Below, in pieces: positions 29,921 through 54,461 of a stretch of 64,000 nt of DNA (positions are counted from its first letter, which is position 1; each line of letters begins with the position of its first letter). The notes beneath the pieces were generated by a model, which was not told the origin of the DNA, made no database searches, and saw only the letters and a list, made by a program, of their open reading frames with translations. The DNA comes from Escherichia coli (GTDB taxonomy: Bacteria; Pseudomonadota; Gammaproteobacteria; Enterobacterales; Enterobacteriaceae), in the NCBI RefSeq assembly GCF_003018255.1, contig NZ_CP027440.1; one strand, written 5' to 3'. The position numbers and the translations under genes were made by a program.

Positions 29921-30829
29921 TTAGCCGGGAAACGTCTGGCGGCGCTGTTGGCTAAGTTTGCGGTATTGTTGCGGTGACATGCCGACATATTTGCCGAACG
30001 TGCTGTAAAAACGGCTACTCGAACGAAAGCCTGCCGTCAGGGCAATATCGAGAATACTTTTATCGGTATCGCTCAGTAACGCGCGAACGTGGTTGATGCG
30101 CATCGCGGTAATGTACTGTTTCATCGTCAATTGCATGACCCGCTGGAATATCCCCATTGCATAGTTGGCGTTAAGTTTGACGTGCTCAGCCACATCGTTG
30201 ATGGTCAGTGCCTGATCATAGTTTTCGGCAATAAAGCCCAGCATCTGGCTGACATAAAATTGCGCATGGCGCGAGACGCTGTTTTTGTGTGTGCGCGAGG
30301 TTTTATTGACCAGAATCGGTTCCCAGCCAGAGAGGCTAAATCGCTTGAGCATCAGGCCAATTTCATCAATGGCGAGCTGGCGAATTTGCTCGTTCGGACT
30401 GTTCAATTCCTGCTGCCAGCGGCGCACTTCAAACGGGCTAAGTTGCTGTGTCGCCAGTGATTTGATCACCATGCCGTGAGTAACGTGGTTAATCAGGTCT
30501 TTATCCAGCGGCCAGGAGAGAAACAGATGCATCGGCAGATTAAAAATCGCCATGCTCTGACAGGTTCCGGTATCTGTTAGTTGGTGCGGTGTACAGGCCC
30601 AGAACAGCGTGATATGACCCTGATTGATATTCACTTTTTCATTGTTGATCAGGTATTCCACATCGCCATCGAAAGGCACATTCACTTCGACCTGACCATG
30701 CCAGTGGCTGGTGGGCATGATATGCGGTGCGCGAAACTCAATCTCCATCCGCTGGTATTCCGAATACAGCGACAGCGGGCTGCGGGTCTGTTTTTCGTCG
30801 CTGCTGCACATAAACGTATCTGTATTCAT
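29921..30829 (-). CDS. melR: AraC-family melibiose operon regulator
   Basis: 302-aa ORF, C-terminal AraC HTH; divergent from melA. Confidence 0.9.
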   Translation of the reverse strand: MNTDTFMCSSDEKQTRSPLSLYSEYQRMEIEFRAPHIMPTSHWHGQVEVNVPFDGDVEYLINNEKVNINQGHITLFWACTPHQLTDTGTCQSMAIFNLPMHLFLSWPLDKDLINHVTHGMVIKSLATQQLSPFEVRRWQQELNSPNEQIRQLAIDEIGLMLKRFSLSGWEPILVNKTSRTHKNSVSRHAQFYVSQMLGFIAENYDQALTINDVAEHVKLNANYAMGIFQRVMQLTMKQYITAMRINHVRALLSDTDKSILDIALTAGFRSSSRFYSTFGKYVGMSPQQYRKLSQQRRQTFPG

Positions 30830-31111: not shown

Positions 31112-32164
31112 ATGATGTCTGCACCCAAAATTACATTTATCGGCGCTGGTTCGACGATTTTCGTTAAAAATATTCTTGGTGATGTGTTCCATCGCGAGGC
31201 GCTGAAAACGGCGCATATTGCCCTGATGGACATTGATCCCACCCGCCTGGAAGAGTCGCATATTGTGGTGCGCAAGCTGATGGATTCAGCAGGGGCCAGC
31301 GGCAAAATCACCTGCCACACCCAACAGAAAGAAGCCTTACAGGATGCCGATTTTGTCGTGGTGGCATTTCAGATTGGCGGTTATGAACCTTGCACGGTGA
31401 CTGATTTCGAGGTCTGTAAGCGGCATGGTCTGGAACAAACCATTGCCGATACGTTGGGGCCGGGCGGTATTATGCGCGCGCTACGTACCATTCCGCATCT
31501 GTGGCAAATTTGCGAGGACATGACGGAAGTCTGCCCCGATGCCACCATGCTCAACTACGTTAACCCAATGGCGATGAATACCTGGGCGATGTATGCCCGC
31601 TATCCGCATATCAAACAGGTAGGGCTGTGCCATTCGGTGCAGGGAACGGCGGAAGAGCTGGCGCGTGACCTCAATATCGACCCGGCTACGCTGCGTTACC
31701 GTTGCGCAGGTATCAACCATATGGCGTTTTACCTGGAACTGGAGCGCAAAACCGCCGACGGCAGTTACGTGAATCTCTACCCGGAACTGCTGGCGGTTTA
31801 TGAAGCAGGGCAGGCACCGAAGCCGAATATTCATGGCAATACTCGCTGCCAGAATATTGTGCGCTACGAAATGTTCAAAAAGCTGGGCTACTTCGTCACG
31901 GAATCGTCAGAACATTTTGCTGAGTACACGCCGTGGTTTATTAAGCCAGGTCGTGAGGATTTGATTGAGCGTTATAAAGTACCGCTGGATGAGTACCCGA
32001 AACGCTGCGTCGAGCAGCTGGCGAACTGGCATAAAGAGCTGGAGGAGTATAAGAACGCCTCCCGGATTGATATTAAACCGTCACGGGAATATGCCAGCAC
32101 AATCATGAACGCTATCTGGACTGGCGAGCCGAGTGTGATTTACGGCAACGTCCGTAACGTATAG
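31112..32164 (+). pseudogene. melA: alpha-galactosidase, 5' fragment (about 349 codons) truncated by prophage insertion
   Basis: GH4 N-terminus MMSAPKITFIGAGS; the frame ends ...IYGNVRNV* exactly where prophage-end sequence begins; full-length MelA is recalled as about 451 aa. Confidence 0.8.
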
Positions 32165-32260
32165 CGCGGCGATTTTTTTGATACCGATTTGCATTTCATT
32201 TGATACCGCTGAAAAACGCCGATACGCAACTTATTTGATACTAAATCGGCGCTTTTCTTT
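32165..32260. repeat. prophage right-end terminal region with three direct TTTGATAC(C/T) repeats; candidate transposase-binding sites
   Basis: Repeats at 32177, 32199 and 32234 plus a GAAAAACGC motif, immediately inside the melA junction. Confidence 0.45.
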
Positions 32261-32287
32261 TGAGTTTTAGAATGAGTTTTTAAGCGC

Positions 32288-33025
32288 TCATTCACTCTCT
32301 TTCAAACCAGTTTTAACTGTTTGTGGTTTTGGGTAAGGCTGGACTTTGAATAGCTTTGTGTTGAGGCGTTTTCTGGCCCTCTTGTTCAGAAACCGGATGT
32401 AACGAAACTGTCGGAACTTATGCACACTGGCTCTGTCGATATTAGCCCTCAGATGTTCACCTCGTTGTCCGCCTCGTTTAATGGCACTCCTGCAAATCTC
32501 GTGATACCACTCGCCATCAAGTTCATAGAATGTTGATTCATGGCTGCCTACATAATCAAAATTGCTTGCCTGATACACGACACCAAGACAGCCACAACGC
32601 TCATCTGCAAACGACTGAACCCACTGTACCTGCGGATAAAGCTGCCTGATTAGCTTGAGCGCGTAACTGATTGCCCTTGATTCGGAGTTTCTCGGCATAC
32701 AGTCATGCATCCATAGCCGGTTAAGCTCCATATATTCTCGGTTCTGCGTACCCGTTACGACGCGTGCACCACTGTTTGGGTTAAGGGCGTAACCCCATTG
32801 CATTACGCCAACAAGTTCCCGTTCTGAAAATATACCCAGATGAAGGTAGGAATTATTTACGAAACGGTGGCTGTAATGTTTATTGACGATAACCAGTCTG
32901 GCCAGCCAGCAACTTATTGTCTCAACCCGCAACTCACGGGAGCCATAACCAACGATATTGTCGTTATAGCGAATAAGTTCAGGCGTGCTGATGATACGGG
33001 ATGTGACTTGCTTTCTGTTCCCCAC
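32288..33025 (-). CDS. mom: Mom-like DNA modification (adenine carbamoylmethylation) protein
   Basis: 245-aa ORF overlapping the 3' end of a com-like gene, last gene before the prophage end as in Mu; true start probably internal. Confidence 0.6.
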
Positions 33026-33179
33026 GACAGGATTTCCTTGTGTATGTGGGGTGCTCTGTGGCGCTCGGAGATGTGATTTGATTGAGGGTTTTACAGCGCG
33101 GACATTTTACTTCCAGATAACTGAAACTGGCCCGTGCCAGTAGCTTATTGCAGTGTCGGCACCGTATGTTTCGATACAT
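32979..33179 (-). CDS. com: Com-like zinc-finger translational activator of mom
   Basis: [14 protein letters not shown]...EVKCPRCKT... aligns with Mu Com (IRCKNCNKLL...IRCPRCK) from memory; overlaps the mom start. Confidence 0.7.
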
Positions 33180-33585
33180 GGCCGCATAACCTCCTGCTTT
33201 GTTGTTGATGCCTTTCTCATGCAATCGATCGACAAAAACGATCGATTCGATTTGTTTAATTGATACAACAAATAGATTTAAAAGTCATCAACAATGATTC
33301 AGGGCGGTGATTATTTACTTAAAGAAACGAAGAGTTAGGTGGTGAAAACGATCATAAAATGATCATTTTATTGACTTTTTATACAGTGAAGGTAGGATCG
33401 CGCGTATATGTAGTATGTTTCAAATCAACAGGATACTACATAAAAGGGAAACCCAGCATAGCTGGAACTATGCTGGGTCAATCTGTAAAAACTTGCATCA
33501 ATGCTTTACTTCGAGCTCGTGGCGTATCCTATGATATTCCCCGGTCTCCTGTAAAGCAGAGATGCATAAAAAGGAGATCTTTATC
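33180..33585. promoter_or_regulatory. AT-rich divergent control region upstream of com-mom with five GATC sites (33227, 33240, 33350, 33361, 33396)
   Basis: GATC density well above the roughly 1 per 256 bp expected by chance; position matches the methylation-sensitive region upstream of mom in Mu. Confidence 0.45.
33452..33477 (-). terminator. 10-bp-stem hairpin followed on the minus strand by a T-rich run
   Basis: cccagcatag ctggaa ctatgctggg; minus-strand downstream sequence tttcccttttta. Confidence 0.45.
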
Positions 33586-33756
33586 ATGGATAAAGAGCCT
33601 GTTTGCCCTGCCTGTAAGACTCCCTTACAGCTCATCTATCGCCGTTCTCGATCTCAAAATGGCAAGACATACAAACCAAAAAATGCTTCCTGTTTCAGGA
33701 TGCTGATATGTCCTGCCTGTTCTCCCCGGAGGGAAAATACACAAAACGTGCATTAA
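33586..33756 (+). CDS. small zinc-ribbon protein (CPAC...CPAC), the only plus-strand gene in the prophage part
   Basis: ATG 33586 preceded by AAGGAG at 33571-33576; MDKEPVCPACKTPL...MLICPACSP; ORF track 33562..33756. Confidence 0.45.
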   Translation: MDKEPVCPACKTPLQLIYRRSRSQNGKTYKPKNASCFRMLICPACSPRRENTQNVH

Positions 33757-33794: not shown

Positions 33795-34040
33795 TTACAT
33801 CATAGTACCGTCAGTTCCGGGTTGAACCGGCTCTGGTTGCTCTACGGGTTGAGGCTCATTTTCCGTGCTGTTTTCAGCCGGAGAACGACCAACCATTCGG
33901 GCCAGCACTTCATCAACATATGCGTCGATTTGTGCCTCAAAATCCTTGCGAACCTGCGCCTTCAGCACGCGGTTCACTTCTTCAGAATAAAGTGCCTGTT
34001 TGACAAGCTCTTCAGTAACCGTGCCTTTAATCTCTGGCAT
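33795..34040 (-). CDS. hypothetical acidic 81-aa protein
   Basis: ORF with AGGAG RBS upstream of ATG; no recognisable motif. Confidence 0.45.
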   Translation of the reverse strand: MPEIKGTVTEELVKQALYSEEVNRVLKAQVRKDFEAQIDAYVDEVLARMVGRSPAENSTENEPQPVEQPEPVQPGTDGTMM

Positions 34041-34075
34041 GAATATTCTCCTTTCCTTTTCTGGTTCACAAAAAA

Positions 34076-34255
34076 TTAAATCTGACCGGAGTCTTTCGGC
34101 TGCGGCATTACAGCACCGCTTTTTATCTTTTCCTCGGCAGCTGCATCAATTTTATTTCGAAAATAATTGCGAATAATTTTATAACCACCGCTGACAAGCA
34201 ACAGACAACAAACCACCGTGCAGAAATACAGCAGGCAGACGTTTATATATGTCAT
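34076..34255 (-). CDS. hypothetical 59-aa single-pass membrane protein
   Basis: MTYINVCLLYFCTVVCCLLLVSGGYKIIRNYF... read from the minus strand, GAGG RBS; below the ORF-track length cutoff. Confidence 0.4.
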   Translation of the reverse strand: MTYINVCLLYFCTVVCCLLLVSGGYKIIRNYFRNKIDAAAEEKIKSGAVMPQPKDSGQI

Positions 34256-34312
34256 ATAAGCCTCACTCTTATTAACTGATGTTACAGCCGGATAAATTCC
34301 CGGCCGTCACGA

Positions 34313-36361
34313 TTATGCCGCAGGGGTATTAACCTCAAGGACAACGCTCTCAAAAGACACGCCATAAGTTGCCCCTTTGGTGACATCTGTCAGTGTCAGC
34401 GTATCTTTGGCAGGGGAAAGTGCATCTTTCACCATCTGGAATGCCTGGCCCGGAGTGCCATCCAGCACAGGCGTTACCTGGGCACTTCCCGCCGTAAACT
34501 TCAGGACAAGTGTATGCCACTGGTTATTGTAGGCTCCAAATGATCCCAGTTTCGTATTCCCCCCTGTTTTATGGTGCATCAGATTTAACTGGCCGCCTGT
34601 TGTCTGGAGATAATACGCCATCAGGAACGGTGTGCCTGTACCACTCATGGTTACACCTTCCGGGACCGTATCGGTGTGGAGGTAAATACCCAGAGCAAAC
34701 TGGCCTTCTTTTACTTCACCTGACAGACGGAATTTACAGGTCAACTGACCACCATGCTTCAGAAGTTCACCGGCTGCATCAGTTCCATGGGTAAGCGTCC
34801 AGGTTTTTCCGCTTTGTTTGGATACGGTCAACGCTTTACCTTCGTCCGTCAGCTGGATTGTACCATCTGTAATTTTCCAGCCCTGAGCCGGGGCTTCTCC
34901 TGCTGATGCTTTAAGTGAAAGCAGCGTACGGAGTGACGGGGATGTCGGATGGGGGGACTCACTGCCTCCTGGCTGACTACCTGTCGGCGCTTCCGGTTTC
35001 CCACCCGGCGCGGGCTGAGGCAGGGCTTCACCATCAGGGGCCACACCGGCAATAAATGCAGAGGTCAGACCTGCATATTTAAGAATTGCTGATGCAAAAC
35101 GATCTGAGACCAGAAAACGGCGCGCCCAGGAGCTAAAATGGGTTGCCCTGGATGCTGTTGTCCAGTTGCCATCTCCCCGTGATTCCGCACCATAATACCC
35201 GGCAGAAGCGATATCCGGGTCGTGCTCCGGCAGGTTGGTCGCGGTTTTATTACCGAACTCATCGTGCATCAGTGGAACAAAGTGAATGTTCTCGGAAGCC
35301 CGGTTTTTATATCCGCTATAAATGGTTTCATATGCCGCCGGGTTCTTCTCTTTCCAGTCATAGGTTGTGTCACCACATAACCACGGCACACTGTCTGATG
35401 AACCACCAATACACTGACCGGAGAAAGCACCAAGATCCGCACGGAATTTTTTCACCATCGCAGTAAACTGGGCACCATGCTGGGCCGGGGTCGCTTTAAG
35501 GTCTCCTTCCCCCTGAATCCATACGACAGATAACAGCACATTCTTTGGATTCGCCTCAAGTGCCGCTTTAGTTCGACTGACAAGATCCTGATACAGTGGG
35601 GTATCCACTCCCCAGCGTAGTGACGCCTCGGCTGCACCACTTGCCGGATCGAATGAGCCAACTGCGCCGGTTGTAAAAGCAGAGCCGCCACGGGCACAGG
35701 GAACCAGTAAAATCCCGGCATCAGCAGGAATCACCGGTAATACTTTTTTCGCAATATGAAGTCCCTGCCCCACACAACCATACTGCCCTTTTTTCAGGTC
35801 TGCTTTTGGATGGTTCAGCAGACTCATATTCTGAACATCATGAAGGCAGTGATCTGCTGGAATGATTTCATTGTATTTGCAGGGAATACCTCCGGGGGTT
35901 TGTGTATTCCTGCGTGCCAGCTGCATAATACGTGGATCAGGACGATCATAAGAATCCGGAAGGGGCAACCCTTCACCATAAGATGAAGCATTGGACTGGC
36001 CGGCTATAACAATCACGTAATACCAGGAAGGGGAGCTGGAAGCAGTTTCATTTCCTGACGGACGGGTATGTGTTTCAGCATTATCCCAGTCTGACGGTTC
36101 AGCAGTACCGGCAACATCAGCACTTAACGGAATGACCGCACCAATACCCGCTCCGGTAATTTCCACACTCGGATCACCGGATACTGGCCTTACCCACAGG
36201 CAATCCCGTGTATTAAAACTGATGAGACAGTCAGCAAATGTCATTCCTCCTTTTGTTTCGGCCGGAGGAAAGGGAGCCTCAAGAAATGCCGCTGTACCAC
36301 CGGAAACTTTAACAGTAAAGTTTCCGGGCATTGATGATAGTTGAACCCATTTGGACGTCAT
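34313..36361 (-). CDS. SGNH/SASA-type sialate O-acetylesterase-like protein with C-terminal beta-rich putative carbohydrate-binding domain (resembles prophage NanS-p family)
   Basis: 682-aa ORF; IAGQSNASSYG esterase signature, Pro-rich linker, about 200-aa C-terminal domain; no signal peptide. Confidence 0.55.
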   Translation of the reverse strand: MTSKWVQLSSMPGNFTVKVSGGTAAFLEAPFPPAETKGGMTFADCLISFNTRDCLWVRPVSGDPSVEITGAGIGAVIPLSADVAGTAEPSDWDNAETHTRPSGNETASSSPSWYYVIVIAGQSNASSYGEGLPLPDSYDRPDPRIMQLARRNTQTPGGIPCKYNEIIPADHCLHDVQNMSLLNHPKADLKKGQYGCVGQGLHIAKKVLPVIPADAGILLVPCARGGSAFTTGAVGSFDPASGAAEASLRWGVDTPLYQDLVSRTKAALEANPKNVLLSVVWIQGEGDLKATPAQHGAQFTAMVKKFRADLGAFSGQCIGGSSDSVPWLCGDTTYDWKEKNPAAYETIYSGYKNRASENIHFVPLMHDEFGNKTATNLPEHDPDIASAGYYGAESRGDGNWTTASRATHFSSWARRFLVSDRFASAILKYAGLTSAFIAGVAPDGEALPQPAPGGKPEAPTGSQPGGSESPHPTSPSLRTLLSLKASAGEAPAQGWKITDGTIQLTDEGKALTVSKQSGKTWTLTHGTDAAGELLKHGGQLTCKFRLSGEVKEGQFALGIYLHTDTVPEGVTMSGTGTPFLMAYYLQTTGGQLNLMHHKTGGNTKLGSFGAYNNQWHTLVLKFTAGSAQVTPVLDGTPGQAFQMVKDALSPAKDTLTLTDVTKGATYGVSFESVVLEVNTPAA

Positions 36362-36460: not shown

Positions 36461-37021
36461 TTATTTTTCCGAAACGCTCGCAGGATAATAACGATAAAGG
36501 GTTGAAAGACCGATATCAAAAATAAGTGCCACCTGTCTTCGACTGACACCCCCGGCCAGTAAACGCCCGACCTGCTCGTATTGTTCCTGCGTGAGACGGC
36601 GGGGTCTGCCGCCGGTTCGTCCCCTTTCACGGGCAGCTGCAAGACCAGCCCGTGTCCGTTCGACAATTAATTCACGCTCCATTTCTGCCAGCGCACCCAT
36701 TATGTGAAAAAAGAAACGCCCCATGGGGGTTGACGTATCAATGTTGTCAGTAAGACTACGAAAATTTATCCCCTGTTGCTGTAATTCATCTGTCAGCGCA
36801 ACAAGGTGGCGCATACTGCGCCCCAGCCTGTCCAGTTTCCAGACCATCAGTGTGTCACCGGGTTTTAGTTTCTTCAGTGCCCGCTTCAGTCCCGGCCGCT
36901 GTGTCGTTTTACCACTCATTTTGTCTTCAAAAATCTGCTCACATCCTGCACATTCCAGCGCATTTCTTTGTAAACCGGTGTTCTGGTCATTTGTTGATAC
37001 GCGTATATAGCCAATCAGCAT
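36461..37021 (-). CDS. gin: serine DNA invertase of the Gin/Hin/Cin/Pin family
   Basis: MLIGYIRVSTNDQNTGLQRNAL...GRFFFHIMGALAEMERELI aligns closely with Mu Gin (recalled); adjacent to the invertible segment. Confidence 0.9.
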   Translation of the reverse strand: MLIGYIRVSTNDQNTGLQRNALECAGCEQIFEDKMSGKTTQRPGLKRALKKLKPGDTLMVWKLDRLGRSMRHLVALTDELQQQGINFRSLTDNIDTSTPMGRFFFHIMGALAEMERELIVERTRAGLAAARERGRTGGRPRRLTQEQYEQVGRLLAGGVSRRQVALIFDIGLSTLYRYYPASVSEK

Positions 37022-37076: not shown

Positions 37077-37102
37077 TCCCTGAAAACCTCGGTTTACGGG
37101 AA
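37077..37102. promoter_or_regulatory. gix-like recombination site, gin-proximal (crossover core TC at 37089-37090)
   Basis: tccctgaaaacc tc ggtttacgggaa matches the gix/hix consensus TTATCCAAAACC TC GGTTTACAGGAA (recalled). Confidence 0.65.
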
Positions 37103-37471
37103 ACGGTAAATAAGGCTGCTGATGCCCTGCCATCGGGTGGAACCGCCGTGGCAGCAAACAGACTCGCCACCCCAAGAAATATTAATGGCGTTCCTTTTGA
37201 CGGAACGCAGGATATCAACATCACGTCAGGAATGACGCAGTCAACCGCAGATGGCCGGTATGTACAGAATGTTCAGCTTGGAGCACAGAGCTATCATTCA
37301 CCCGGAGGCAATGAAATATCATGGAATTACAGCGCACCTTCCGGTTGTATGCTTTCCGGTATTAACGTGCAGGAAACCGGCTCCCGGTCTGCGGACAATA
37401 TCGGTGGGGTCTATTATCGCCCGGTTCAGATTTATATTAATAATGCCTGGAGAACGGTAAGTTCAGTGTAA
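37091..37471 (+). CDS. promoterless alternative tail-fibre C-terminal cassette (S'v-like) inside the invertible segment
   Basis: Open frame from the gix core: GLRETVNKAADALPSGGTAVAANRLATPRNINGVPFDGTQDINITSGMTQS... shares its first 50 codons with the expressed fibre then diverges; ORF track 37148..37471. Confidence 0.6.
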   Translation, partial: GLRETVNKAADALPSGGTAVAANRLATPRNINGVPFDGTQDINITSGMTQSTADGRYVQNVQLGAQSYHSPGGNEISWNYSAPSGCMLSGINVQETGSRSADNIGGVYYRPVQIYINNAWRTVSSV

Positions 37472-37505
37472 ACCACAGAAAAGGGTGCTGAATGCACCCT
37501 CTGAA

Positions 37506-38027
37506 TTATTCCGGTTTTTCCGGCCAGGGAATCGCCTGGTAATGCCCCTCACTGGCAATATCATTAAAGTGCATTTCTTTAAGCTGTCGGATATACGCCA
37601 TCCAGCGCGTCAGCTGTAATTTATTTTCATCGCTAATCATGTCCAGTTTTAATTCTGTTTTCCAGTCATCCACGGTTTCGTTGGCTTCCTGGAGCAGCGA
37701 TGAGCGACGCTTTTCAGCAACCGTCTTCCAGTTTACCGGCACCTTTGATATCAGGCCATCAGAAAACTGCCAGTTACCGTCAATATTCACACCTTCCGGC
37801 AGTTCGTCCACTTCAACAACAGTAAAACCTGCCGGATATAAAGCAGAGACATCTTCAGCAACAGAGCAGATAATACCCGTTACAGGCGAAATACAGAGTT
37901 TGTATTTCTTTGTGAAAAGCGGGATAGATTCATAAAAATCCCTTCCGTCCTCACTCTGGAAATACTGAACATCCTCACCATAGGGTTTGTGTTCCGGGTA
38001 ATATCGTTTTACGTTAATAAGCTCCAT
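37506..38027 (-). CDS. tail fibre assembly (chaperone) protein, U-like
   Basis: ORF track 37506..38138; start at MELINVKRYYPEH (AAGGTG RBS); downstream of the fibre gene. Confidence 0.7.
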   Translation of the reverse strand: MELINVKRYYPEHKPYGEDVQYFQSEDGRDFYESIPLFTKKYKLCISPVTGIICSVAEDVSALYPAGFTVVEVDELPEGVNIDGNWQFSDGLISKVPVNWKTVAEKRRSSLLQEANETVDDWKTELKLDMISDENKLQLTRWMAYIRQLKEMHFNDIASEGHYQAIPWPEKPE

Positions 38028-38106
38028 TATTTCACCTTGTTTTTGTTGAAAAGACAAAATCATCATATATTTATTCAGATAATCTGTTTTTTGAACTACT
38101 GCACTT

Positions 38107-38994
38107 TTATGCGCTGGAAGCTGTTTTCCACGAACCATCTATCAGAAACTGAACAGGTCGATAATATGCGGTTACCGTTGCATTACCATCACCAGCGACA
38201 TCAAGCCCTGTAAGTACGCATCCGTCAGGAACTTCAAAAATATTATATTGCATTCCAATCGTTGACCTTGAACCTCTTCGAATGCTTTGAACATAACGTG
38301 AGTCAGCCACAGACTGCGTCATCCCCGATGTAATATTTATATCCTGCGTTCCGTCAAATGGGACACCATTAATATTTCTTGGAGTGGCGAGTTTATTCGC
38401 TGCAACAGCCGTTCCGTTCGATGGCAGGGCATTCGCCGCCTTATTTACCGTTTCCCGTAAACCGACGTTATCGATAAAAGCGCCTTTATCCGGAATGTCT
38501 GCGCCGTTCTGCTCCCTGCGCAGGTAACGGTTATCACCTTCGCTTTTGCTGTAAACATCCAGATTATTACGGGCGGTTCCCGCATTCTCCAGGTCGGCAA
38601 GGTTCTGATCCTTCGCCAGAGCATTAACGTCACCGGGACCAAGACTGTTTTTTGTGGCAAGCGCCCCAAGACCAAGATAACCACGGGCAAGACGCTGGGC
38701 TTCCGCACCGGCATCAGCAATTTCTTTCAGGTTGTTTTTCCGGGAAAAGGCATTCGCAGCGATAATGGCTTTAATGGACAGCGTAAGCTGGTTTAACTGC
38801 GCCTTATCCGGCTGAATACTGGCTTCAGCCAGAATATTCAGCAGTTCGGCCTGGAGAATATTCAGCCAGTCCTGACCAATCCAGCTGATACCTTTTTGTC
38901 CGTCACCTTCGGTAAACCAGGTGGTGGTATTACTCTGCGCCGGTGCCAGCGCAGGCATATTCGCCACGCCGGAATTATTATCAACATGAAACAT
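38107..38994 (-). CDS. tail fibre protein (S-like); constant part outside and variable C-terminus inside the invertible segment
   Basis: 295-aa ORF; the gix site at 38452-38477 lies in-frame inside the coding sequence (codons FIDNVGLRE). Confidence 0.75.
   Translation of the reverse strand: MFHVDNNSGVANMPALAPAQSNTTTWFTEGDGQKGISWIGQDWLNILQAELLNILAEASIQPDKAQLNQLTLSIKAIIAANAFSRKNNLKEIADAGAEAQRLARGYLGLGALATKNSLGPGDVNALAKDQNLADLENAGTARNNLDVYSKSEGDNRYLRREQNGADIPDKGAFIDNVGLRETVNKAANALPSNGTAVAANKLATPRNINGVPFDGTQDINITSGMTQSVADSRYVQSIRRGSRSTIGMQYNIFEVPDGCVLTGLDVAGDGNATVTAYYRPVQFLIDGSWKTASSA
38452..38477. promoter_or_regulatory. gix-like recombination site, distal (core GA at 38464-38465), inside the tail-fibre gene
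   Basis: ttcccgtaaacc ga cgttatcgataa; same left half and core as the inverted site at 37077-37102. Confidence 0.65.
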
Positions 38995-50286: not shown

Positions 50287-51234
50287 TTACAGATAATCCG
50301 CGACAACCAGCTCCAGCTTGCCCTTCATCTCGTTAGAGACGGTTGCGTTTCCGTCTGCGAACAGTTCACGCTCCAGCAGCTGCACCGCCTGTTTTTCCAG
50401 CGAGGTGGGGACAACAATATGGGTGGGTTTGATGCCGAGTTTGCGGCCACCGTCAGCGGTAAATTCGCGCATGGCTGACCAGCCGTGCCACAGTGCATCC
50501 AGCGTCAGCGGTGACTGCATCATGTAGGCCATCTGCCAGAAGCCGTAGCCCACATTGCGACGGGCGGATGCACCAAACACAAATTCGTTATCGGTGAATG
50601 CGCGACCTTCATCGACTTTGGTCTGGGCAACCAGTTCAGCCTTACGGCGATCCTGATAAATCAGCGGTTTGATTGCGCGTGAACAGTCGAGCAGATACCA
50701 GGCAGGACCGCTGTAATCCGCTTGTGCACCGACAGAGCCGGTTTTTGCCACAAACATATTGCTGACCATCTGCGCATCCCCGGAGCCATCCACTTTGGGG
50801 TAAACAGGATGTTCGGTATCAAAGAAGTTCTGGCCGTCATAGCAGGCCGCATTAATCCCGTCACGAAGAGCAGCAAAGACCAGTTCATCCGGTTGTGCCG
50901 CAGCAGCGCGCCCCATCTCCTGGAACAACGGGGAATAAATACCGAGGTTATCGTCTTCGAAGTCATCGCGGTTAATGGCGACGGTGCCTTCAAAGGTTTT
51001 GTTCACGATGGCATAGCCATAGGCCTTCATCTTCTCGATGACGCGGGAGCCGATCCACTCACGGAACTGCGGGAACTGCCCCAGCCAGCCGTAGGTGTTG
51101 GATTTCGACGTGGACGGTACGGTCATCGCAATTTTTTTGTACTGCGACGGGGCCATGGACATCCCGGCCTGAAAATCAGAACGGTAGCCCGTCATCAGGG
51201 CGGTGATCATCGCCGGTGTAATCGGGGTAGGCAT
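50287..51234 (-). CDS. major head subunit (Mu T-like)
   Basis: 315-aa ORF directly downstream of protease/scaffold gene. Confidence 0.75.
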   Translation of the reverse strand: MPTPITPAMITALMTGYRSDFQAGMSMAPSQYKKIAMTVPSTSKSNTYGWLGQFPQFREWIGSRVIEKMKAYGYAIVNKTFEGTVAINRDDFEDDNLGIYSPLFQEMGRAAAAQPDELVFAALRDGINAACYDGQNFFDTEHPVYPKVDGSGDAQMVSNMFVAKTGSVGAQADYSGPAWYLLDCSRAIKPLIYQDRRKAELVAQTKVDEGRAFTDNEFVFGASARRNVGYGFWQMAYMMQSPLTLDALWHGWSAMREFTADGGRKLGIKPTHIVVPTSLEKQAVQLLERELFADGNATVSNEMKGKLELVVADYL

Positions 51235-53008: not shown

Positions 53009-53129
53009 ATTGCCTCCGTATAAAATATGAATATAAAATAAGCAGGCGGTCAGTGTACGCTTAACTGGTAAAGTCGGTGCCTGCCTCCGGGTGGATCATG
53101 TATGCGGGTTCGACCCCCGCCACTGACCG

Positions 53130-54461
53130 TTAATCAATATCTCCTTCCAGTACCTCAAGCATTCCGCCCCGGATATCCGATTTCAGCTTATCCATATTGA
53201 TAACCCGGTAAGCATTAACAATCACATCCAGTTTATCCGGCTGACGCTTCAGGCTGTACGGTGCATTAACGGCAATCTGCACACTGCCATCCTGATTTTC
53301 CACGATATACATCAGATTGTTGTGCCGTTTGTCCCACAGTACCGCTTTTGGCCTTGCCAGCATTGCCGGTAAGCGCCCGAAATCCTCCGGTGTCAGGGCG
53401 ATACCGTCATTCTGATGTTTCATGCTGTCCGCATGGAGCACATTTTTACCGCTCATCGCCAGCAGGCGGGCCGGTGGCGTTCCCGTCCGGCTTTCCACCG
53501 CCTGCGCAATGCTTTCGGTCATAAAGCCCAGCGTGCGGATATCGTTACCGCCTCGCCGGGTTTTCATGATGTTTTTTGCCCAGATGCGGAACGCCAGCTG
53601 CCGCTCCGGGCTGTTGTTCATCTCCTGAACCACCATTTCCCGTAACGCCGGGCTTTTCACCTCGATCAACTTGCGGAGCAGCGCCTGGTCTGTGCCGAAC
53701 GCCGCCGAACCGGGGTTATATGACCAGCCCACATCCGGTGTCATGGTTCTGGTGCCATCTGAATATGTGGTCACCGGCATTTCTCTGACTTCTCCGGTCT
53801 GCTTATCCACGCCAGCCTCAACATTGCGGGTGGAAAGATGATCCTGACCGGATGAAACGGATAACCCCATTGCATCCAGACGGGTCTGAGACAATGGCCG
53901 GACACGGCAGCGGCAGTTCCAGCCATTGGGTGGGTAGTGTGTATTCCAGAACGGATCGTCATAGCGGAATACCAGACCGTTAAGGGCGGAATGCGCCGGG
54001 CGGGTGCGGCTGTCCATCACCGCCACATACTGCCAGAACGGATGCGTGTCCGTGTTGTTCATCATCTGCGTGTAACGCCCGGCATTGTAAGCCACGCGGG
54101 TGTTCACGTTGTAAATCAGCGCCAGACGGCGGGGACAGCCCAGCTGCACTTCTTCTGCGTTACCGGCGCTGTCCACCACAATCTGCTTTCCCCACCATCC
54201 CAGCTTTTGCAGGCGGGGGGTCAGTGTGCGGATAAATGCTTTCTGTGAAATCCCCTCATCAATGGCCCGTTGCACTTCCGCCTGTAGTGTGGTCAGTACG
54301 TCCAGGCGTGCCACTTTTGCCGCCGTGAACGAACGGGCATGAACATCCGCGTCTGTTTCGAACCAGTTCCAGCTGATATGCGCCCCTTTGGCGCGGAAGT
54401 ATGCCACCGCCTCTTTTGAGGGAAGCGTGGCGGCATAACCTAAATCAATCCCCTGTGCCAT
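53130..54461 (-). CDS. head morphogenesis protein (Mu F-like)
   Basis: 443-aa ORF downstream of portal. Confidence 0.65.
   Translation of the reverse strand: MAQGIDLGYAATLPSKEAVAYFRAKGAHISWNWFETDADVHARSFTAAKVARLDVLTTLQAEVQRAIDEGISQKAFIRTLTPRLQKLGWWGKQIVVDSAGNAEEVQLGCPRRLALIYNVNTRVAYNAGRYTQMMNNTDTHPFWQYVAVMDSRTRPAHSALNGLVFRYDDPFWNTHYPPNGWNCRCRVRPLSQTRLDAMGLSVSSGQDHLSTRNVEAGVDKQTGEVREMPVTTYSDGTRTMTPDVGWSYNPGSAAFGTDQALLRKLIEVKSPALREMVVQEMNNSPERQLAFRIWAKNIMKTRRGGNDIRTLGFMTESIAQAVESRTGTPPARLLAMSGKNVLHADSMKHQNDGIALTPEDFGRLPAMLARPKAVLWDKRHNNLMYIVENQDGSVQIAVNAPYSLKRQPDKLDVIVNAYRVINMDKLKSDIRGGMLEVLEGDID

Follow-up and report, generated by a model that had tools for sequence, protein, structure and literature searches.

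We analysed a stretch of 64,000 nucleotides of Escherichia coli DNA (contig NZ_CP027440.1, assembly GCF_003018255.1; hereafter the window) and within it an open reading frame (ORF) that lies in a Mu-like prophage between the DNA invertase gene gin and the genes com and mom. The ORF starts with ATG, encodes a product of 682 amino acids and occupies positions 34313-36361 on the minus strand, stop codon included; the minus strand is also that of its domains, of the exchanged cassette, of gin, of the two further genes of the block, of the hairpin behind them and of com and mom, and is not repeated below. We consider it probable, at roughly 0.65, that this gene encodes a NanS-p-type sialate O-acetylesterase, that it opens an accessory block of three genes, that the enzyme is released by lysis and that the gene is a mosaic whose esterase body has been exchanged. 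An earlier note, made from the sequence letters, had described a single cargo gene at a place where Mu has nothing, and the position was confirmed: in phage Mu the stop codon of gin and the start of com are only 94 bp apart. The cargo, however, goes beyond a single gene, being a block of three (esterase, DUF1378 and DUF826), and the esterase belongs regularly to Mu-like prophages of the Sp18 family and is not a one-off.

When the protein was compared by phmmer with the PDB sequences, residues 104-429 matched E. coli NanS (YjhS; PDB 3pt5) with an E value of 3e-110 and residues 478-679 matched the C-terminal domain of NanS-p (PDB 6yp6) with an E value of 1e-41. In Pfam the SASA family (PF03629; E 7.5e-13), which the earlier note had proposed to look for as SASA/DUF303, covers residues 116-312 and DUF6645 covers residues 534-644 (E 2e-25), and in PHROGs phrog_143 extends over residues 62-681 (E 2e-273). 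As sequence matches those to the PDB and to phrog_143 are far beyond chance, and the identity of the protein as a SASA esterase is secure at the level of sequence homology. The exact 682-residue protein is present in NCBI under the name 'sialate O-acetylesterase' on at least 1000 contigs; RefSeq copies are named 'DUF6645 domain-containing protein' by the Prokaryotic Genome Annotation Pipeline (PGAP).

The SASA/SGNH catalytic domain (residues 113-432; 35066-36025) was delimited by the match to 3pt5 and by invariant motif columns. Close to its beginning stands the sequence IAGQSNASSYG (residues 119-129, with GQSN at 121-124), which had been recognised in the note as a signature of SASA/SGNH esterases, and further downstream a QGE (residues 283-285) forms part of a W-I-QGE motif (281-285). 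By SASA homology Ser123 (codon 35993-35995) is the putative nucleophile and His408 (codon 35138-35140) the putative base. In a four-sequence alignment with lambdoid and Mu-like alleles GQSN, all three residues of the QGE (Q283, G284 and E285) and His408 are invariant. The GQSN with Ser123 and the adjacent Gln122 aligns to the GQSN of 3pt5, and His408, which is found in the context T-H-F-S-S, aligns with the conserved His of 3pt5 and has an Arg at position -3 as in NanS; in NanS this pair is Ser19 and His301. The published hallmarks of the SASA family are the GQSN of block I, the (H)QGE of block III and the His of block V, and the Asp of block V is missing in the E. coli enzyme NanS, whose preferred substrate is 9-O-acetyl-N-acetylneuraminic acid (9-O-acetyl-Neu5Ac) (PMC9487903). 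A Ser/His pair is therefore the expected state, since NanS itself lacks the block V Asp. A loss of the SGNH fold or of the catalytic residues was looked for; the homology as well as Ser123 and His408 are retained and the Asp is absent as in NanS. The alignments show that the predicted SASA active-site set, consisting of Ser123, Gln122 (inverted oxyanion hole), QGE 283-285 and His408, is intact.

The catalytic domain is followed by a Pro/Gly/Ser-rich linker (linker 2, residues 433-478; 34928-35065), defined by its composition, with 10 Pro, 7 Gly and 5 Ser among the 44 residues 437-480, in agreement with the Pro-rich linker noticed before. It is the segment least conserved among the alleles, with identities of 7-47%. 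Behind it lies a C-terminal lectin-like jelly-roll domain (DUF6645, residues 479-682; 34316-34927), assigned from the 6yp6 and Pfam matches and from an AlphaFold2 (AF2) model, in which this domain is beta-rich with a predicted local distance difference test score (pLDDT) of 74-86. The beta-rich C-terminus with the look of a carbohydrate-binding module, as it had been put, fits both this model and the lectin-like structural match. We found no hydrophobic core of a signal peptide in residues 1-70, where the maximal 11-residue Kyte-Doolittle mean is 1.34, and this too is as claimed; over the whole esterase the top 19-residue mean is 1.44. With regard to the NanS-p architecture that the earlier note had proposed, two of the three domains, the catalytic and the C-terminal one, could be verified. 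The third, DUF1737, is absent and an unrelated domain is present instead.

The comparison with close relatives revealed the mosaic nature of the gene. In a sliding-identity analysis against the Mu-like phage in LC727881 the region from 37100 to 36001 (gin to about codon 120) is 95-100% identical, the region from 36000 to 34062 drops to 18-75% and the region from 34061 to 33066 is again 89-100% identical, with breakpoints at about 36000 and about 34062. Sp18, the Mu-like prophage of E. coli O157:H7 Sakai, gave no megablast match over window positions 35559-34054. Domain by domain, the identity to the Sakai and LC727881 proteins is 100% for the N-terminal domain (N-domain) and linker 1, 67% for the catalytic domain, 7-30% for linker 2 and 41-42% for the C-terminal domain, which is nearer to that of the lambdoid phage 86 (59%) than to that of any Mu-like allele (41-44%). 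Because the identity drops so sharply between near-identical flanks, and because of the domain-wise identities, we conclude that the segment from the conserved GQSN region through the end of the esterase gene to the end of DUF1378 (34062-36000) is, as judged from the sequences, replaced as a cassette. A donor of the cassette was not found in the phage collection, and in complete E. coli genomes this body allele occurs only in Mu-like or rearranged Mu-like settings where the context was examined.

We propose the following course of events. The enzyme would be made in the cytoplasm without an export route of its own and, as it has neither a hydrophobic leader nor such a route, it would reach its substrate at phage lysis. 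The substrate would be 9-O-acetylated and also 7/8-O-acetylated sialic acids, either free or on mucin glycans, and the released enzyme would strip the acetyl groups which block sialidases and the NanT/NanA-dependent catabolism. By analogy with the lambdoid NanS-p enzymes the sialic acid would then be usable by surviving lysogenic kin. On the DNA level the N-domain of about 78 residues and the linker following it would belong to the Mu-like backbone, while homologous recombination with other nanS-p alleles would swap the esterase body and DUF1378, possibly anchored in the conserved GQSN region and in the DUF826 gene. It has been reported that every prophage NanS-p allele tested from EDL933 and O104:H4 was an active esterase and allowed growth on 5-N-acetyl-9-O-acetylneuraminic acid (Neu5,9Ac2) and that NanS-p alleles de-O-acetylate mucin sialic acids (review PMC8065619).

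Several observations weigh against this proposal. The window allele is only 63-68% (catalytic domain) and 41-59% (C-terminal domain) identical to any other allele examined, and because of this divergence its substrate range could differ. The full-length AF2 model, calculated from the four-sequence alignment, has a mean pLDDT of 51, and the assignment of the catalytic fold draws on sequence homology and not on this model. Transcription together with gin in the lysogen, instead of late in the lytic cycle, is also conceivable. Sp18 has been reported to be non-inducible by mitomycin C (PMC2669165), so that release by lysis may be rare. Finally, the capsid-bound protein gp84 of phage phi24B calls the picture of a soluble released enzyme into question for the family (preprint 10.64898/2026.04.10.717836).

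The prophage DNA is 97-99.5% identical to Sp18 (window 64000-38312 and 34054-32160), which agrees with the Mu-like genome setting deduced previously. The gene order in Sakai is the same, namely ECs_4992 (invertase), ECs_4993, ECs_4994, ECs_4995, the antisense gene ECs_4996, com (ECs_4997) and mom (ECs_4998), with ECs_4993 encoding 679 amino acids and annotated as 'hypothetical protein'. The order of the genes is that of Mu, with head, tail and baseplate genes, an invertible tail-fibre segment, gin, com and mom; the major head protein is encoded at 50287-51234, and the transposase genes lie beyond the end of the window and were seen in Sakai only. The prophage ends on the right at about 32160, within melA (31112-32164), whose interrupted ORF stops at 350 amino acids instead of about 451; melR lies upstream (29921-30829). 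The junction of melA and prophage is absent from the complete E. coli genomes in the collection, and a host with the interrupted melA should be unable to use melibiose. Related copies of the prophage are found at other chromosomal sites in different genomes, as is expected for transposition. The invertible tail-fibre (G) segment (37082-38463) has the opposite orientation to that of Sakai Sp18 at 98.8% identity, which is consistent with an active gin.

Of the 5426 complete E. coli genomes, 204 contain the segment coding for the N-terminus of the esterase, and all but one of these (203) have it contiguous with this gin; cattle and human isolates of E. coli that produce Shiga toxin (STEC) predominate among the carrier records listed. 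The esterase body allele of the window is found in 42 complete genomes with at least 98.7% identity. In seven Mu-like prophages of IMG/VR (loci L021, L022, L024, L025, L029, L032 and L033) the esterase follows the tail-fibre genes with no gin homologue detectable, and the distance between gp48 and the esterase is about 1.8 kb as compared with 2.6 kb; the esterase locus is therefore independent of the invertase. Two further IMG/VR loci (L020 and L028) carry a Mu-type esterase which is cut by a stop codon to 499 and 318 amino acids, respectively, and judging from these two the gene is decaying in some lineages. The Mu-like esterase gene of E. coli SMN197SH3 (L005, NZ_CP024056.1, 4527091-4546665) is in two pieces. 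The 3' part stands beside the truncated integrase of another prophage, the 5' part together with gin is found about 5 kb away, inverted, across pspG-dusA, and an IS1 is located between DUF1378 and DUF826, which suggests a rearrangement between prophage copies.

The N-domain that takes the place of DUF1737 comprises residues 1-78 (36128-36361), as delimited by AF2 modelling, hhalign comparison and a homologue search, and is predicted to be all-beta with a small cupin-like fold. In a model based on a three-sequence alignment AF2 placed six beta strands in residues 6-78, with pLDDT block means of 83-90 over residues 11-70. The following linker 1 (residues 79-112; 36026-36127) is predicted to be disordered up to residue 111, with a pLDDT below 50 for most of residues 80-110, and ends with ASSSPS just 5' of the first catalytic strand. 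It is at this strand, at window position 36025, that the DNA homology to lambdoid phages (about 67%) begins, and on the protein level lambdoid phages match from residue 65 or 106 onwards. Some copies of the gene are annotated by PGAP from Met11 (672 amino acids) and others from the long start. Residues 3-10 are kept in the Salmonella homologues and in those with a second version of the N-domain, type B, which is 62% identical, and the Salmonella protein lacks a Met corresponding to Met11; for these reasons the start giving 682 amino acids is favoured.

DUF1737, which according to the earlier note should turn up in a profile search, was not detected in the window protein or in the N-domain alignment even at a Pfam E value of up to 10, whereas in a control with the lambdoid NanS of phage phi419 it was found at residues 3-53 (E 7.6e-18) in addition to SASA and DUF6645. 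No other Pfam family matched the N-domain alignment at that threshold either. DUF1737 is described as a helix plus three strands (preprint 10.64898/2026.04.10.717836). A remote homology between the two domains was considered and rejected (hhalign probability 0.1%, no Pfam match and a different predicted secondary structure). With Foldseek the N-domain model matched small cupins of the PDB (E values of 0.04 and above, template modelling (TM) score about 0.4), matches which point to a fold class for the modelled domain and carry no functional inference. In BFVD and AFDB50 the matches were many uncharacterised phage and enterobacterial proteins of 75-95 amino acids (target TM score 0.6-0.73, E about 1e-3 to 1e-2), among them one Salmonella protein of 77 amino acids at E 8.7e-4; stronger Foldseek matches were esterase homologues, including a Salmonella protein of 777 amino acids. 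A0A633DL65 and A0A2U3ERC9 are examples of the AFDB matches. In PHROGs the family phrog_4772 (79 positions, function unknown) gave a weak full-length match, with an E value of 1.3e-5 for the Salmonella homologue and 0.006 for the window protein.

Relatives recognisable by sequence are rare. They comprise esterase N-termini, mostly fragments at contig ends, of E. coli, Shigella sonnei (59% identity) and Salmonella enterica (29%). A phmmer search of 1.84 billion representatives returned five matches, one of which was a repeat protein of 1445 amino acids, two profile searches of a set of 5.8 billion returned nine each, and tblastn against phages returned two records; in these searches no free-standing homologue of the N-domain was found by sequence, the matches being enterobacterial esterase N-termini and the one repeat protein. 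The Salmonella homologue is encoded downstream of the invertase gene in a Mu-like prophage, and a query with the Salmonella-type N-domain found nothing in IMG/VR. That prophage has two small ORFs between gin and the esterase gene (L008, 9426-9910), one of 58 amino acids with a C-terminal hydrophobic helix and one of 87, which the E. coli phages lack. The type-B N-domain is found at 22 IMG/VR loci, and all 22 have a Mu-like setting with gin, baseplate J and gp48 upstream and/or com and mom downstream. Out of 353 phage records with a NanS-p homologue only two have the N-domain, and these are the two Mu-like phages inserted into Stx (Shiga toxin) phages, against none of about 351 lambdoid records. 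Among the sets searched the N-domain, as recognised by similarity, is seen in Mu-like prophages only. The ratio of nonsynonymous to synonymous substitution rates (dN/dS), measured between type-B alleles and not on the window allele, is 0.06 (dS 0.31) and 0.03 (dS 0.16) for the N-domain, small counts on 78 codons, as compared with 0.09-0.13 for the catalytic domain, 0.03-0.14 for the three folded domains and 0.05-0.18 for linker 1. These ratios point to a purifying selection on the N-domain which is as strong as that on the catalytic domain. That the N-domain arose by duplication of one of the prophage's own structural genes was not supported; an hmmsearch of the window ORFs returned the esterase gene itself only, and ten small structural and early ORFs of the prophage belong to other PHROGs, none of them to phrog_4772.

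These properties raise the possibility, which we regard as tentative and as compatible with the release of the enzyme by lysis, that the N-domain docks the esterase on the capsid or tail of the Mu-like virion in place of DUF1737. Displayed on the particle the enzyme would serve adherence to or penetration of mucus or the modification of receptors, and each phage type would keep its anchor while the bodies are exchanged. In phage phi24B the lambdoid NanS-p protein gp84 is a capsid-bound structural protein, and hexamers of its DUF1737 sit on the capsid hexons (preprint 10.64898/2026.04.10.717836). It is exactly this hexon-binding domain that is replaced, with the other architecture kept, and the replacement is predicted to be folded and to be followed by a disordered linker of about 35 residues. 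The low dN/dS of the N-domain and its tie to the phage type, in E. coli genomes, IMG/VR loci and phage records as in Salmonella, point in the same direction. However, since there is no lambdoid homologue the N-domain is not exchangeable with lambdoid phages, and plain homologous recombination would give the same linkage. There is moreover no paralogue of the N-domain among the structural genes of the prophage, and the fold matches are weak and lead to small uncharacterised proteins and cupins and not to a known decoration or tail protein.

The insert between gin and com amounts to about 3.2 kb (36460-33225) and holds the three genes of the block and an antisense pseudogene. Upstream, gin (36461-37021; phrog_125, E 6e-95) is separated by 99 bp from the esterase gene on the same strand, and a consensus scan found no terminator-like site in this gap; nor did a promoter and terminator scan from gin to the ORF reveal anything convincing, the counts being near the shuffle expectation. 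The second gene of the block, DUF1378 (34076-34255; phrog_494, E 4e-29, and PGAP name), encodes 59 amino acids with one N-terminal hydrophobic helix (19-residue Kyte-Doolittle mean 2.46), and the third, DUF826 (33795-34040; phrog_311, E 5e-30, and PGAP name), encodes an acidic protein of 81 amino acids. Their products are 53% and 47% identical, respectively, to the counterparts in the Stx2a phage phi419, where the DUF1378 gene likewise lies 3' of nanS-p, and the order esterase-DUF1378-DUF826 is that of the lambdoid late region of this phage. The lambdoid phages 86, JLK-2012 and 434 have the esterase without DUF1378 and DUF826. Between the block and the com/mom control region the consensus scan found a terminator-like hairpin with a stem of 13 pairs followed by a T run (33450-33479), the sole convincing match of the terminator and promoter scan.

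Three GATC sites are clustered just 5' of com, at about 33225-33260, and com (32979-33224) and mom (32288-33025), identified by phrog_13819, phrog_6417 and phrog_1384, together occupy 32288-33224. A duplicate of the mom promoter sequence 5' of the esterase gene was considered and rejected, the local alignments being no better than those of shuffled sequences. The mom gene of the Mu-like phage in LC727881 (window 32260-33065) has almost no DNA similarity to mom of the window and of Sakai, with com and the region upstream being 98-100% identical, as though the right end had undergone another allelic replacement. The antisense ORF between DUF826 and com (33294-33756, plus strand; phrog_26524, function unknown) is intact in Sakai (ECs_4996, 154 amino acids); in the window it is a pseudogene because of two 1-bp deletions after 33324 and 33591, and PGAP flags a frameshift in other strains too. 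An Rfam scan and a tRNA search gave no match. In strain 107 (L002, 39850-39929, corresponding to about 53050-53130 of the window) PGAP has annotated a 'tRNA-OTHER' between the virion-morphogenesis and head-morphogenesis genes, and ARAGORN predicted no tRNA in the window.

The arrangement of these genes bears on a second and somewhat more doubtful explanation, according to which the esterase is a lysogenic-conversion enzyme, co-transcribed constitutively at a low level with gin from the resident prophage. The enzyme would leak from the cell or act on imported or periplasmic substrate, and O-acetylated sialic acids would become accessible without lysis. Here the short gap to gin without a terminator-like site, the hairpin behind the block and in front of the com/mom control region and the frequency of the prophage in cattle and human STEC would fit, and gin is expressed in Mu lysogens. 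On the other hand, a cytoplasmic enzyme lacking a signal peptide would not meet extracellular mucin, and free Neu5,9Ac2 is thought to be handled in E. coli outside the cytoplasm by NanS. In lambdoid phages, moreover, induction leads to late expression of nanS-p (PMC10462455, PMC8065619).

We consider it unlikely that the enzyme acts on bacterial surface glycans, that is, that it deacetylates O-antigen, capsule or colanic acid and in this way aids adsorption or release of the phage or blocks superinfection. This idea has been raised for NanS-p (review PMC8065619), among the folded parts the C-terminal domain varies most (41-59% identity between allele classes), as would be expected of a specificity module, and the gene adjoins the host-range region with the tail fibres and the G segment. 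Yet the catalytic domain is close to NanS with its preference for 9-O-acetyl-Neu5Ac (PMC9487903), the tested NanS-p alleles all act on Neu5,9Ac2 and mucin sialic acids (PMC8065619), and the esterase, DUF1378, DUF826 and the antisense ORFs match no PADLOC model of anti-phage defence at an E value of up to 0.01. That the gene is a decaying passenger without present function, for which the truncated IMG/VR copies, the split copies of SMN197SH3 and the neighbouring pseudogene could be quoted, is very improbable, as the gene appears to be kept intact with its full 682-residue frame, all catalytic motifs, the near identity of the allele in 42 complete genomes and a low dN/dS in all three folded domains.

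NanS-p esterases are regarded as fitness or virulence accessories of enterohaemorrhagic E. coli (EHEC) and are counted and discussed as belonging to lambdoid prophages, chiefly Stx ones. Extra alleles of the Mu type, one or more per genome, are present in about 4% of complete E. coli genomes, mainly those of cattle and human STEC, and inventories of nanS-p that rely on DUF1737 or on a lambdoid context will overlook them. The kind of enzyme is known; what is new is the Mu-like setting, with respect to the literature searched, and the informative domain swap. The clean exchange of the cassette shows that temperate phages of unrelated types recombine within the genomes of STEC. As the domain swap concerns precisely the module for which capsid binding has been reported, it can be read as an experiment of nature. 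Docking by the Mu-type N-domain would mean that gut phages have been selected, convergently, to display a mucin-modifying enzyme on the virion; without docking, capsid binding by DUF1737 would be peculiar to lambdoid phages and the enzyme mainly a soluble product. It is conceivable, though we hold this idea with reservation, that phage sialate esterases are built on a modular principle of anchor plus enzyme, in which the N-domain is the virion-docking module of Sp18-type phages and the counterpart of the DUF1737 of lambdoid podoviruses. In that case the particles of Mu-like STEC phages, too, would display an esterase for mucin sialic acids, unrelated phage types would trade esterase bodies as cassettes, each keeping its own anchor, and the many free-standing proteins of 75-90 amino acids with a similar predicted fold in enterobacterial prophages (phrog_4772-like) would be candidates for small virion proteins.

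In the searched literature we found no paper linking nanS-p to Mu-like phages and none naming ECs4993, and the descriptions of Sp18 in it do not mention the esterase gene. Among the known systems nearest to the window protein are the lambdoid NanS-p proteins, such as Z1466 of 933W and vb_24B_21 (gp84) of phi24B, from the latter of which the C-terminal domain structure 6yp6 is derived. Both kinds of protein have the SASA domain (64-68% identity) and a Pro-rich linker with the DUF6645 domain (41-59%), both are prophage-borne and without a signal peptide, and in many, though not all, lambdoid phages DUF1378 and DUF826 follow as in the window. The NanS-p type is furthermore present with several alleles per STEC genome. 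In contrast, the lambdoid proteins start with DUF1737 and the window protein with an all-beta domain of some 78 residues unrelated to it, the window gene is carried by a transposable Mu-like prophage of the myovirus type and not by a lambdoid phage, and the DNA of the window gene is only about 67% identical to any lambdoid allele. Lambdoid nanS-p is located between Q/stx and the lysis cassette, and control by Q antitermination is inapplicable to the window gene because of its locus between gin and com-mom. The classical phage 434 also carries a homologue just 5' of holin (L012, OL657226.1, 43456-45306; 62% identity over residues 108-678), and hence the NanS-p family is not confined to EHEC prophages.

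Chromosomal NanS (YjhS, 3pt5) is homologous over the full catalytic domain and has the same Ser/His pair and QGE without the block V Asp, but it is a single-domain protein of the nan regulon which is not phage-borne and lacks the N-terminal and lectin-like domains. Phage Mu has gin, com, mom and the upstream GATC cluster in the same order and orientation, with the short gin-com gap in place of the 3.2 kb with three genes and the antisense pseudogene. ECs_4993 of Sakai Sp18 has the same locus, three-domain layout and downstream genes and is identical over residues 1-116 but differs from the GQSN on (catalytic domain 67%, C-terminal domain 41%, linker 2 unrelated); the window allele is found in 42 of the 204 complete genomes carrying the N-domain. 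From these similarities the protein is best described as a Mu-type variant of NanS-p which is allelic to ECs_4993.

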